Assembly (NCBI GenBank): GCA_021513715.1
Contig: CP084167.1
Location: 160,001 to 224,000 of the forward strand
DNA length: 64,000 nt
Source of the DNA: Candidatus Heimdallarchaeum endolithica
GTDB taxonomy: Archaea > Asgardarchaeota > Heimdallarchaeia > Heimdallarchaeales > Heimdallarchaeaceae
Reading direction: 5' to 3'
Position 1 is the first letter of the stretch. The number at the start of each line of letters is the position of its first letter. Made by a program: the position numbers and the translations under genes. Positions 29,485-35,494 of the stretch are shown in pieces. The notes below the pieces were generated by a model. That model was not told the DNA's origin. It saw nothing but the letters and a program-made list of their open reading frames with translations, and searched no databases.

Positions 29485-32331
29485 CTAGACTACTCTCATT
29501 TCCTCTACTACGTTCACTTCTGACGCACTAATAGCAGGAATTAACGTAGCTATTATTATTGAAGCAAAGGATACCAATATTGTAATCGTCAATGAAACTA
29601 TCGGTATGTACAATGTCCGTTTAAAGGTTACTTGAGCAAATCCTAACACTGAATCAAAGAATGAAATAAAAATGTTGAATTGATAAGCAAATAAATAACC
29701 TATCAACGAACCAAACAGAGTAGCAAATATAGCTATTGAAAATATTTCACTTATTACTAAAAGAATTAATTGTTTCTTCGAGGCACCTTCAGCAATCAAA
29801 ATTGCAAATTCTTTTCTTCTTTTGTTAATAATTAACATCATAAAAATAAATACTCCAATAATTGAAATTGTAATAGCAATAATATAGTTAATTGAAAGGA
29901 GACCTGGTATTCCAAAGCTACGGCCTTCTGCTTTCTGTAAATCATCTAGCACCTCATTGTACGTATAAATATCACTTATCCAATCAAAATTCTTCTTGAA
30001 CTCAAAAGCCAATTTTTCTTTTTCTACATTTACCCCAGATTTGAAGTTCACGATTACTCTTACAATTCTTGTTGTATCTGGAAAATGAGCAATAAGGAAT
30101 CTTTTATCAACTAGTGCATGAAATCCCCACCCATTTTCTACATCCAACAATGCCGGCGCATGTTCATAGACGATTTTAGCTTCTGCGTTAATTGTTTTGT
30201 TGTTTGTAGTTAATGAAATAGTTGAATTTGTATCTATTTCAAGATAATTTGCAGTCAATTTGTCTACAGCAATATTAGTAAGTGGATCTGCAAGTAGAAC
30301 TGCTAAACCATCTTTTGGATTTGTATAATCTTCTATTGCATTTTTATGCCAGAAGCATTTATCAGAGTATAGTTCGAGGTCTACCCCGAAGATAAATATC
30401 TTACCACCCCAATACAGTTCTGTAGATTTGTAGTAAATAGGAACAATACTCTCTATTTTGTCTTCAAAACCAGTGAAATTGGATACACTTAAAGAGTTGA
30501 TATCTCCAACTAATTCTATTCTCATATCTCCCCCCACATTGGTTTCTGCTTGTTGAATTATAAATTCATTTCCTGTGGCTCCTTGAATAGCTGTGAAAAC
30601 AGAAAGAGAAACAGATAAGCAGAGAAGTAAAGTTATTCTTGGGAAATACTGGTGTCTTCGACCTAAACTTCCTTTTATTAAAAGTCCAATCTTCTTAAAT
30701 ACCTTAACAATGTATTTATCCAAAACTTGAGGGATTTTAGGAGCTATTCTTGAAGCTACCAATCCAGAAGCATACCAGAGGAGAATAGGGGAAGTAACCT
30801 GAAGAAAGATTGCCCAACCTTGGAACTTAACATTTTCATTTATTTCTCTCAAGAATGATAAAAACACGCCTATTATTCCTGCAGAAAAAGCAAAAACATC
30901 AGCATATATACGTTTAAGGAAACCTATTTTAGGTTTATCAATAGTTTTCACTATTGCTACTTCTTGTTGTAAGAATGTTTTTGTTTTTTTGTTTGTTGTA
31001 ATAAGTAAAATACCAAGAGTGACAATTACTGTACTAATTATTTCCCCAGCCCCAATACTTAGAAAACTAAAAGCTTCATTAAATTGTGAGATGTTCACAT
31101 TCATAAAGCTATAAGATGAAACTACAACTGATGCCCCAATTGTTCCTAAACCTATTCCAATGGTTTCTCCTATAATACCAATAATAATAATCTCAGTAAA
31201 TATCATCCTTTTAATCTGTTTAGGGCTTGCACCTTGTGCTTTCAGTACGCCTACTTCGTATTTTCGCTCTTGTAAAGCGAGATCAGCTCCAAAGTTAATT
31301 AATATTATAGAAAGAATTAAGGCTGGAATATAGAGAACAAAGTCAATTACTTGCATTATTAATGTTAAAATAGAGTTAGATTGCAACACTATCCCAACAA
31401 GATTTAATCCTTCTACTTGATTCGGGTGACGTCTGACTATTCTATCAATAAAGATATCAATTTCTTCACTCATTTTTTTGATATCATCAGTTGACAAGTT
31501 GCTATAGTCTAATTTCACTCCTATTAAATAATATCCATGTTTTACAAGTGTCTCAACCATTTTGTCATTTAAATTTGATGACGAAAAAATTACATCGTCA
31601 GAATTGAAGAAACTTATTCCAGTTCTAATTCTTTCAATATTAAAGAAACCTGAAATAGTAAGATTAGAAACAATAATGATTGAATCAGTAACAGTAAAAT
31701 TCTGCGTAAGCTCGTTATATACAAGTGTCACTGCACTAATATTAACAGATAACACATCTCCTACTTCTAAACCATATAATAAAGACAGAGTTTCAGGAAC
31801 TATACATTCTCCTTCATTTAAAGATAAGTTACCATTAACTAAATCAATTGAGTGAACAAAATCATTATTTACATCATGTTCATCTATAACAATAGGATTC
31901 AAAGATTCAGGTTGATTTTTAGTATCACTAACGTTTTCTGTAAGTTCAAAATCAAATTGAAATAATTCGTTTCCAGTAATATAACCGAAACTTTCAGTAT
32001 AAATAATTGTTGTCTCTTTTGCTTCTTGTTCATTTGCGATTTCATTAGAAAGAGATGTAGGATCATTAAAACCTAGATCATTAGGATAGAAAACAACTTC
32101 AGCTTCAATATTGTTAACTACATCCATAACAGCTATGGTTTTTACTATTGATCCATAGAAGAAAATACTTGAAAAAATAGCTGCACCAAGAATAAGCCCA
32201 GCAACAATTGAAAGAGATCTTCGCTTATATGAAATAATTGATTTAAGTGCAAGTTGTATATAATTCATCATAGCTGTATATTTTCCTGAAATACTCTTCA
32301 TCATTGAAGTAAGTTTGTTTGAAATATTCAT
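29485..32331 (-). CDS. FtsX/MacB-type ABC permease
   Basis: Two ERKYEVGVLKAQGAS / RRKEFAILIAEGAS FtsX motifs, multiple TMs. Confidence 0.88.
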   Translation of the reverse strand: MNISNKLTSMMKSISGKYTAMMNYIQLALKSIISYKRRSLSIVAGLILGAAIFSSIFFYGSIVKTIAVMDVVNNIEAEVVFYPNDLGFNDPTSLSNEIANEQEAKETTIIYTESFGYITGNELFQFDFELTENVSDTKNQPESLNPIVIDEHDVNNDFVHSIDLVNGNLSLNEGECIVPETLSLLYGLEVGDVLSVNISAVTLVYNELTQNFTVTDSIIIVSNLTISGFFNIERIRTGISFFNSDDVIFSSSNLNDKMVETLVKHGYYLIGVKLDYSNLSTDDIKKMSEEIDIFIDRIVRRHPNQVEGLNLVGIVLQSNSILTLIMQVIDFVLYIPALILSIILINFGADLALQERKYEVGVLKAQGASPKQIKRMIFTEIIIIGIIGETIGIGLGTIGASVVVSSYSFMNVNISQFNEAFSFLSIGAGEIISTVIVTLGILLITTNKKTKTFLQQEVAIVKTIDKPKIGFLKRIYADVFAFSAGIIGVFLSFLREINENVKFQGWAIFLQVTSPILLWYASGLVASRIAPKIPQVLDKYIVKVFKKIGLLIKGSLGRRHQYFPRITLLLCLSVSLSVFTAIQGATGNEFIIQQAETNVGGDMRIELVGDINSLSVSNFTGFEDKIESIVPIYYKSTELYWGGKIFIFGVDLELYSDKCFWHKNAIEDYTNPKDGLAVLLADPLTNIAVDKLTANYLEIDTNSTISLTTNNKTINAEAKIVYEHAPALLDVENGWGFHALVDKRFLIAHFPDTTRIVRVIVNFKSGVNVEKEKLAFEFKKNFDWISDIYTYNEVLDDLQKAEGRSFGIPGLLSINYIIAITISIIGVFIFMMLIINKRRKEFAILIAEGASKKQLILLVISEIFSIAIFATLFGSLIGYLFAYQFNIFISFFDSVLGFAQVTFKRTLYIPIVSLTITILVSFASIIIATLIPAISASEVNVVEEMRVV

Positions 32332-33062: not shown

Positions 33063-33588
33063 TAAGCTCCGAGTTATATGGAAAAATATAAAGGTATCTT
33101 TATAAAAAACGATTAATATTAATCAAAAAACTTTGAATTCTTTTCAAACTCCTTTAAAACCCATATTCCTTCTCATAGAATAAAATAAAATATGAGAATG
33201 ACTGCAGAAACACCTAACAAGCAAAAACCTAATATTAAACCTACTATTCTATTCTTTAAGTGCCTTTTTATTAAATCCCCAATGAACCCTCCAATAGGTA
33301 AAAAAATTGATAACACAATAAACAAATACAAATCAAAATGACCTTGTACTACGTGAGTTGTACCTCCTACAACAGCTTTAACTAAAATAATAAAAAGAGA
33401 AGTACCAGAAGCTACAATAGGAGTATATCCAAAACCTAATATCATCAATGGAGAAATAAGCCATCCTCCAGAAGAACCAAGAAGGCCAGTAATAAAACCA
33501 ATTAATAATCCAAAAACTACAATAACGGGAATACTTATTCTAAACTCATAGTCATCCCTTTTTATAGTTATAAAAGGTTTCAACCATG

Positions 33589-33963
33589 AGTTGAAATTTT
33601 ACGTAATTTCTTCAGGACTCTACCCAACCAATCAACAAACTTAGCGAAAGTTGTGAAGACTGGATTAAGAGAACATGAAAGACACAGTCTTAATTAAGTT
33701 CTCTAAGGGGTTCATCTCCTTATCCCGGGCACTCATAACTCCCAAAGGGAAGACCGGGTGTCGTAGGAATGAAACCTACGTCTTTAAGCATATAGCTCAA
33801 GACACTAGATAAATGAGAATTAAATATATAAAGATAGCTGAAAAGTTGTGACACTCCCTAATATCTTGTATGTATTCTTTATTTTTGCAAATGTGTTTCA
33901 GGTTGTTATTGGTATGATAACTCCACAAACTAAAAATTTAGTTTATTATGTAAAAAAGTATCT
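33589..33963. mobile_element. Non-autonomous insertion (MITE-like or intron-like) with CATG direct repeats and sub-terminal inverted repeats
   Basis: CATG at 33585-33588 and 33964-33967; both ends read AG-N6-TTTTACRTAAT inward; in-frame restoration of host gene. Confidence 0.75.
33600..33806 (-). ncRNA. Putative ~200-nt structured RNA inside the insertion
   Basis: Minus-strand TTTATATA ~27 nt upstream; locally raised GC; stems GTGTC/GACAC, GAGC/GCTT, GTAGG/CCTAC, CCCGG/CCGGG, interleaved AGAGAAC/GTTCTCT and AAGACTG/CAGTCTT. Confidence 0.6.
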
Positions 33964-34534
33964 CATGGATAATGAAACCTTGCAAAAAAAGCTATCTTAT
34001 GTCTATGCTCTTCTTGTTCTTTTCTTACTTGTTTCAATTCGTGAATTTTATCTCTTCTATATGTTTCGATACCTAGTTTCTTCTTTTTTCTTGATTCAAA
34101 TAACATTTTAACGCTTAGTAATAGAGCTAATGAGAACAATATTGAAAGTAAAACTACTTCAGGTATCATATCTGTAATTAAAGCTCCCAAAAAAGTAGAA
34201 ATCATAGCAGGAATTAAAAAAGCAAAGGCAAATTTAAAATCAATTTCCTTCCTTTTTCTTGCTCCAAGCACACCAACCAGAGAAATAAAAACTGTAGAAG
34301 ATAAAGTTGTTCCTACAACAGTAGGCATTTCATATTCAAATAATACTGCTAAGATAGGAACAATGAATACTCCCCCACCAAGTCCAGCTATTACGCTTAA
34401 TATGCCAACAACAAGTGCAATTATCGAAATCAAGAATAGTATAGTGGGAGACAATAGCATAACTCTTGATGATAAAAACATATTTATAAAACTTTTTCGA
34501 ATTAAAAACCTAAAAGAAGTTAGAAATTAAATTT

Positions 34535-35494
34535 TTATTTTTTTATGTTATTTCTTAAATAAAGTAAATGGCTTCTTAACGTTGCAGGGCTGACTTTACA
34601 TGTTCGCGCTAGAAAAGCTTGATTAAATAAACTAATATTGATTTTTTCAGCAATCATTTCTGATGCTAAAAAAATACATGCTACACTTAGGACACTAGGT
34701 CGTCTGCTTTTAGCATCTATTTTAGAAAGTTTAACTGCAAATAGCTCTATTGATGTTAAAATTTTATCAATATCTAGTTCAGTAATCTCTAGAGTGTTTC
34801 CGACATTTTGTAACTCTTGCCTAATTTGCCCCCTAATTGATAAATCAGATCTTAAGGTTGCCATATGTTTTGTTACCCAAACACTTGTAGATGACTTAGT
34901 ATAAGTTAAATTATTTGTGATAATATAATCTCGAACTGCTTTGGAGCTAATCTTACAGCCATAGCTTTTAAAAATATCAACTACAGTACGAATACTTACT
35001 GGAATATTTAGATTTTTTGAAAATATTATTGCTAAAGCCGATGCTAGCAAAAAAATGTTTGAAACCTTATTTCCTGCTCTTTTTTCTGCTTCGTATCTCT
35101 TTCTTAATTCATACATTATTTGGTTTTTTTGATTTGATGAAAAACCTAATTTTGTTAAAATGTTTAATAATCTTGATTTATTCTCTTCTATTGCATCATA
35201 TTCCAATTTTTTTTCAGCAAACCACATTCTCTGAAATTGTGCTCTACTTTCTCCTGGAGATACTTCAAAAGATGAAAAATAAGTATTTTTACTTCTTCTA
35301 CTTTCTGGGCTGCCAAAACGATTTTTTCTCCAATCAGTTGAATCACTATCAATAAAATGATCTGAACTATACCTTTGGTCAATAACAAGACCACATTTTC
35401 TACAAACAACATCTGAAACTGTTTCAATAAAATTACTTCCCCCACACTCAGGACACACAATTTTAACCTTTTTCTCTTGCTCTGTTCTCATCAT
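34535..35494 (-). CDS. Divergent TFIIB/TFB-like protein
   Basis: CPECG...VCRKCGLVID Zn ribbon, DWR...RFGSP reader-like segment, two cyclin-like repeats (RRPSVLSVACIFLA). Confidence 0.78.
   Translation of the reverse strand: MMRTEQEKKVKIVCPECGGSNFIETVSDVVCRKCGLVIDQRYSSDHFIDSDSTDWRKNRFGSPESRRSKNTYFSSFEVSPGESRAQFQRMWFAEKKLEYDAIEENKSRLLNILTKLGFSSNQKNQIMYELRKRYEAEKRAGNKVSNIFLLASALAIIFSKNLNIPVSIRTVVDIFKSYGCKISSKAVRDYIITNNLTYTKSSTSVWVTKHMATLRSDLSIRGQIRQELQNVGNTLEITELDIDKILTSIELFAVKLSKIDAKSRRPSVLSVACIFLASEMIAEKINISLFNQAFLARTCKVSPATLRSHLLYLRNNIKK

Follow-up and report, generated by a model that had tools for sequence, protein, structure and literature searches.

The insertion that splits tauE in the window, the 64,000-nucleotide stretch of the Candidatus Heimdallarchaeum endolithica genome analyzed here, is a stand-alone TnpB omegaRNA element, an assignment to which we give a probability of roughly 0.93. 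That this identity holds jointly with a serine-type mechanism acting at the element's core is probable, at a clearly lower level of confidence. Stand-alone omegaRNA elements are already known, and the present case stands out because the search for a cognate transposase found none.

The window lies in a closed 3.33-Mb chromosome. The interrupted gene is represented by two parts, which match positions 3-114 and 122-235 of the Pfam TauE family:

33967..34481, minus strand: 5' part of tauE (Pfam match), in which the insertion junction creates an in-frame TGA
33173..33585, minus strand: 3' part of tauE (Pfam match)

Deleting 379 bp leaves a single open TauE of 309 aa that reads HYP-WLKP across the join, in agreement with the initial annotation, which held that an element splits tauE and that its precise removal restores the frame. 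The empty allele that had been sought among tauE orthologs was found in two relatives. In Ca. H. aukensis PM71 the gene is intact, 88% identical and aligned without gaps, and GCA_054387635.1 (98% DNA identity) is empty at precisely this position, with a single CATG, indicating that the insertion is real and recent. Most likely, tauE is simply disrupted by the element and inactive in this strain. Upstream of tauE, a TFIIB-like zinc-ribbon protein of 319 aa is encoded at 34535-35494 of the window, and this arrangement is syntenic in relatives.

The genome of H. endolithica contains 18 full-length and seven partial copies of the element, and its sister species H. aukensis has 12 matches; a DNA search of 39 other relatives returned no copy. 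Three young copies are only 1-2 bases apart from each other. Together with the empty alleles, these copies establish the non-autonomous mobile element suggested initially, which, as also stated there, encodes no transposase; it holds no protein gene of any kind. We considered the partial copies as autonomous parents and rejected them, as they are remnants. The anatomy of the element is as follows:

33586..33966, minus strand (functional orientation): whole element from AT core to AT core, with a 377-bp interior that together with one AT makes the net insertion of 379 bp
33965..33966, no strand: left AT core at the promoter-side junction, invariant in all copies and present as a single AT in empty sites
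33586..33587, no strand: right AT core at the guide-side junction, forming the final two bases of the RNA scaffold, as placed from copies and empty sites
33945..33955, no strand: left subterminal inverted repeat, 10-19 bp from the core and common to the TnpB-only elements of family A described below
33597..33607, no strand: right subterminal inverted repeat, in the same register as the left one
33674..33677, no strand: internal CATG, the endpoint of two remnants of about 93 bp elsewhere in the genome

The two inverted repeats and the two CATG tetranucleotides (33585-88 and 33964-67) agree with the initial annotation, but CATG is not the repeated unit that it was taken for. The flanks of other copies read TATG, AATG, GATG, CATA and CATC, and AT alone is invariant at both junctions, which defines a core of 2 bp with nothing duplicated beyond it. 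One AT is present at each of eight empty sites orthologous to insertions of the mini-element or of its larger TnpB relative; at one of these sites the end call is off by one. The two remnants (G000:C1:1375194 and 1184362) stop exactly at the element's internal CAT, which suggests recombination at a cryptic core; one of them abuts the start codon of a transporter.

The ends of the mini-element also bound 12 near-full-length TnpB-only elements of about 1.86 kb in this genome and 11 in H. aukensis (family A), each with one ORF of about 483 aa that family and fold searches identified as TnpB. D241, E399 and D433 are invariant in these proteins, and the canonical RuvC-II glutamate is replaced by glycine. 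A second family of TnpB elements (family B) is accompanied by a mini-element of its own, 357 bp long; both likewise have an AT core, with a different inverted-repeat sequence. This second gene-less element (G000:C1:396404-396760 and about six more copies) is derived from family B and contains the 3' RNA region of the family B TnpB. An apparent mini-element with tnpB in H. aukensis was rejected, as it consists of a family B element sitting inside a mini-element copy (L088 and L092, H. aukensis 2585767-2604300), where it was inserted at TCAT. Its right flank has been exchanged with that of a second copy in inverted orientation, as an inversion between the two would produce. The TnpB clade is present in 15 of 28 Heimdallarchaeaceae genomes and in 47 of 76 genomes of a Thorarchaeota family.

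The link between the mini-element and TnpB lies in its conserved RNA region, for which we assigned the following features:

33826..33833, minus strand: TATA-like box of a predicted archaeal promoter, lying some 25 nt ahead of the conserved RNA
33781..33804, minus strand: what is left of the final codons of a deleted tnpB (V-L-S-Q-W-L in relatives) at the RNA start, aligning with the tnpB 3' end in L034-L042
33586..33804, minus strand: predicted omegaRNA scaffold of about 219 nt, whose profile matches directly downstream of tnpB in relatives
33731..33736, minus strand: 5' arm of a pseudoknot, AUGAGU (RNAalifold and covariation)
33586..33591, minus strand: 3' arm of the pseudoknot, ACUCAU, at the end of the scaffold (RNAalifold and covariation)
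33566..33585, minus strand: predicted guide segment in the tauE flank, positioned by analogy with TnpB systems, which would target the empty tauE site

The RNA profile has matches immediately downstream of tnpB in at least six related genomes, with E-values from 1e-6 to 6e-5, and in the alignment the last bases, AACTCAT, are common to the element RNA and the tnpB 3' regions of relatives, along with other shared motifs. Divergence among copies is 0.09 in the RNA block and 0.21 in the left part, a difference of more than twofold. The TTTATAT of the TATA-like box is invariant in 13 aligned copies, and a few variants occur among the most diverged ones; a sigma-70 scan was uninformative because the host is an archaeon. 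The scaffold folds with a z-score of -2.4. RNAalifold predicted the AUGAGU/ACUCAU helix unprompted, and two independent compensatory changes, from G-C to U-A in family A and to A-U in L036, support it. This pair matches a pseudoknot that is conserved in omegaRNAs (10.1101/2023.11.20.567912). Many of the predicted stems also have pair-breaking variants (34 broken and 28 kept). We propose that the mini-element arose by an internal deletion of a TnpB-only element, which would have fused the left end and its tnpB promoter to the omegaRNA and the right end. In another genus, six independent tnpB-less copies have the same design. Guide-only mini-elements arose several times in Heimdallarchaeaceae and disrupt host genes.

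TnpBs of the same clade reside in the genome and are candidate partners. However, the TnpB subfamily with the RNA closest to that of the mini-element was found in neither Heimdallarchaeum genome, and the RNA profile had no match at the loci of two resident TnpB types, family A and the 504-aa protein, so that any pairing with a resident nuclease is tentative.

An intron in the tauE mRNA that keeps tauE functional had been offered as one explanation of the split gene; it would be removed either by the archaeal endonuclease or through self-splicing. Exact removal does restore the frame, the junctions can pair at the tauE locus, where the junction-junction duplex described earlier is present in the minimum-energy fold, and IStrons provide a precedent for an omegaRNA combined with an intron. 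The other copies make this reading very improbable. Of the 18, 12 overlap an ORF with 100 or more codons, in sense orientation in four cases and in antisense orientation in eight, and some of these overlaps fall at the first or last codon. Flank pairing is neither enriched nor conserved among the copies, none of the 18 has a canonical bulge-helix-bulge on either strand, and a cut centered on the CAUG helix at tauE would keep the UGA stop. Rfam gave no ribozyme or intron match near the gathering score, only chance matches.

We assigned a target motif at the core from the junctions:

33965..33968, minus strand: predicted transposon-adjacent motif (TAM) CCAT, consensus VCAT

Read in the RNA orientation, C precedes AT in 34 of 36 insertions of the mini-element and family A, a count in which a few insertions common to both species may appear twice. 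The element itself ends in TCAT, and yet a T precedes CAT in only one of 34 insertions, compared with 37% in the background (p=3e-6), a pattern reminiscent of the way in which IS607 tells self from non-self. Family B prefers TCAT as a target and ends in TGAT. These pairs (VCAT and TCAT, TCAT and TGAT) parallel CboIStron, where the TAM is TGGG and the end TCGG (10.1101/2023.11.20.567912), and we infer that VCAT and TCAT serve as TAMs. The element transcript would run into the flank, and a TnpB supplied in trans could take up this RNA with the adjoining 20 nt (33566..33585) as its putative guide. The loaded nuclease would then cut empty sites composed of (V)CAT and the guide sequence and spare the element's own TCAT end, a preference that would favor retention of the element. 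Among the first eight matches listed for each predicted guide, there was no second match preceded by CAT. Neither the element end nor the empty site turned up in a search of viral contigs. The predicted guide of one copy (G000:C1:1237053-1237433) matches a CRISPR repeat at 14 of 16 bases; the repeat has no preceding CAT, and the match is probably due to chance.

The same junctions do not bear out the site-specific or palindrome-specific targeting proposed initially, since near-identical copies occupy unrelated targets with only CAT in common, and the only requirement is (V)CAT. The palindrome at tauE had been read as a trait of the element, but 3.6% of comparable sites fold equally well, which gives a probability of 0.48 of seeing one or more such sites among 18 copies. 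As a group, the copies do not differ from the background in target folding (p=0.11), and we regard the tauE palindrome as incidental. These observations also bear on a derivation from IS110/IS1111 elements with a bridge or seek RNA, a link drawn in the initial annotation. The mini-element resembles the IS1111 group in its subterminal inverted repeats, short 2-bp core, internal promoter and structured non-coding RNA. In contrast to that group, it has no DEDD recombinase and no specific target, its RNA is unrelated to theirs and homologous to the tnpB 3' regions, and neither IS110 domain was found in the genome. Such a derivation is therefore highly unlikely.

How the stand-alone omegaRNA element moves has to be read from its junction anatomy, as no transposase was found inside or beside any AT-core element. 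The 2-bp core without other duplication and the symmetric arms fit an exchange by a serine recombinase via a circle, a route described previously (PMC6188088). The element would be excised as a 379-bp circle and integrated by exchange over the AT core, comparable to the exchange of IS607 over GG. The circle junction that follows from this model is the one predicted in the initial annotation.

The best candidates for the recombinase, which we name tentatively and at somewhat less than even odds, are two host genes resembling short large serine recombinases. They encode proteins of 240 and 249 aa (G000:C1:316728-317450, L028, and 405348-406097, L029) that have intact catalytic motifs, a catalytic and a recombinase domain, and no zinc ribbon. 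Such genes occur in 26 of 28 Heimdallarchaeaceae genomes and are almost absent elsewhere in the phylum sample. The first has conserved synteny and a predicted model closest to the Bxb1 integrase. Beyond these two, no IS110, IS630 DDE_3, Pfam Recombinase or IS607 TnpA was found in the two closed genomes. It is conceivable, if on balance doubtful, that transposase-free TnpB elements and guide-only mini-elements are moved in general by these vertically inherited host serine recombinases of about 240 aa, with just (V/T)CAT as the target. Several observations argue against such a role. The recombinases are syntenic, vertically inherited and never near tnpB; the inverted repeat differs between genera, yet the recombinase is about 75% conserved. 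A search for a chromosomal site resembling the circle junction, as expected of a host att site, found none. We treat the role of the host recombinases as a hypothesis because the co-distribution reflects one lineage and is not independent evidence. Since a single Phage_integrase match, at 29735, is all that the genome contains, the host serine recombinases might also serve chromosome resolution.

Alternatively, the same element may be moved by an unrecognized, divergent or recently lost transposase, either an IS607 TnpA or a DDE enzyme with a 2-bp AT duplication. We judge this unlikely, if well worth weighing. Mobilization in trans is common among solo TnpBs (PMC10691335), the element ends have short tandem motifs like those of IS607, and Thorarchaeota TnpBs of the clade adjoin a protein without a Pfam match. 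That protein, however, has no match here, and IS607 TnpA scored below the cut-off in both closed genomes. The element has spread recently in both species. True IS607 elements do occur in other Heimdallarchaeaceae (L306-L319), with other ends and a TnpB of about 640 aa; the search of the two closed genomes found none. As for a DDE enzyme, IS630 DDE_3 was not found in five genomes, the terminal repeats of the resident DDE elements are ordinary and differ in sequence, and in family B the terminal bases adjoining AT lack symmetry. A MITE of an IS630-like DDE element was rejected on the same grounds and because its repeats would be terminal rather than subterminal.

A derivative of IS200/IS605, moved by a Y1 enzyme through peel-and-paste with the left AT as part of the target motif and the right AT as part of the element end, is quite improbable. 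The target consensus is asymmetric, as this mechanism would have it, PATE elements with an omegaRNA are known (10.1101/2023.03.14.532601), and the genome has one Y1 tnpA. This tnpA has its own hairpin ends, however, and is itself interrupted near its start by a copy of the mini-element (L030:1875-2260, G000:C1:925509-925883). Y1 was found in only four of 31 family genomes and was found neither in the closed H. aukensis genome nor in 25 genomes of a genus in which these elements abound. In another genus, the ends are true C-rich/G-rich inverted repeats rather than local hairpins.

Compared with known systems, the element resembles stand-alone omegaRNA loci and PATEs (PMC10691335; 10.1101/2023.03.14.532601) in being protein-less and multi-copy, in combining transposon ends with an omegaRNA, and in depending on a transposase and TnpB in trans. 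PATEs, however, end in Y1-type hairpins and share their genome with a tnpA. In the mini-element, the AT core is accompanied by double-stranded inverted repeats, and the search for a matching transposase was unsuccessful. With IS607 and CboIStron (10.1101/2023.11.20.567912; PMC6188088) it shares a 2-bp core without further duplication and a target motif ending in the core. As in CboIStron, a single upstream base distinguishes the element end from the target motif and the pseudoknot stops at the element end, and the TnpB of the family, like that of IS607, has a shifted RuvC-II glutamate. On the other hand, the core is AT rather than the GG of IS607, the subterminal repeats at +10 to +19 are symmetric, unlike those of IS607, neither element nor genome has a TnpA with an N-terminal HTH, and there is no group I intron. 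The element would work like an IS607-derived guide cassette and falls outside IS607 by its core and its transposase.

The family A protein conforms to the D-phi-G type of TnpBs with an alternative RuvC-II glutamate (PMC10711439): it has GIDLG, a G in place of the canonical E, an E located six residues ahead of the zinc finger, and the RuvC-III D. It is not of the DPG pro-Fanzor type and was found only in Asgard genomes among those searched.

We found no description of this AT-core family in the literature searched, the coverage of which was limited, so that this absence is not proof of novelty. The elements provide an Asgard TnpB system ready for testing, with a protein, RNA boundaries, a pseudoknot and predicted TAMs (VCAT for family A and TCAT for family B). 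Should the host recombinases prove to move the elements, they would represent compact integrases that need only 3-4 bp of target sequence, and the elements would live as mobile DNA without a transposase of their own. This would be a serine counterpart of Xer-exploiting elements, with nuclease, guide and recombinase at three loci.

Asgard TnpBs linked to aCas1 carry an GTTCACTCA motif (PMC10691335), and the Thorarchaeota homologs of the TnpBs described here (33-37% identity) have GTTCACTCA downstream, whereas the Heimdallarchaeaceae TnpB elements have other ends and no partner gene. In Thorarchaeota (L163-L166, L227-L272), TnpB lies head-to-head with a conserved protein of more than 1200 aa at 26 loci, between GAGTGAAC/GTTCACTC repeats. 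This protein had no match in Pfam or in the ESM Atlas, and the pairs are possibly the aCas1 elements reported previously (PMC10691335).
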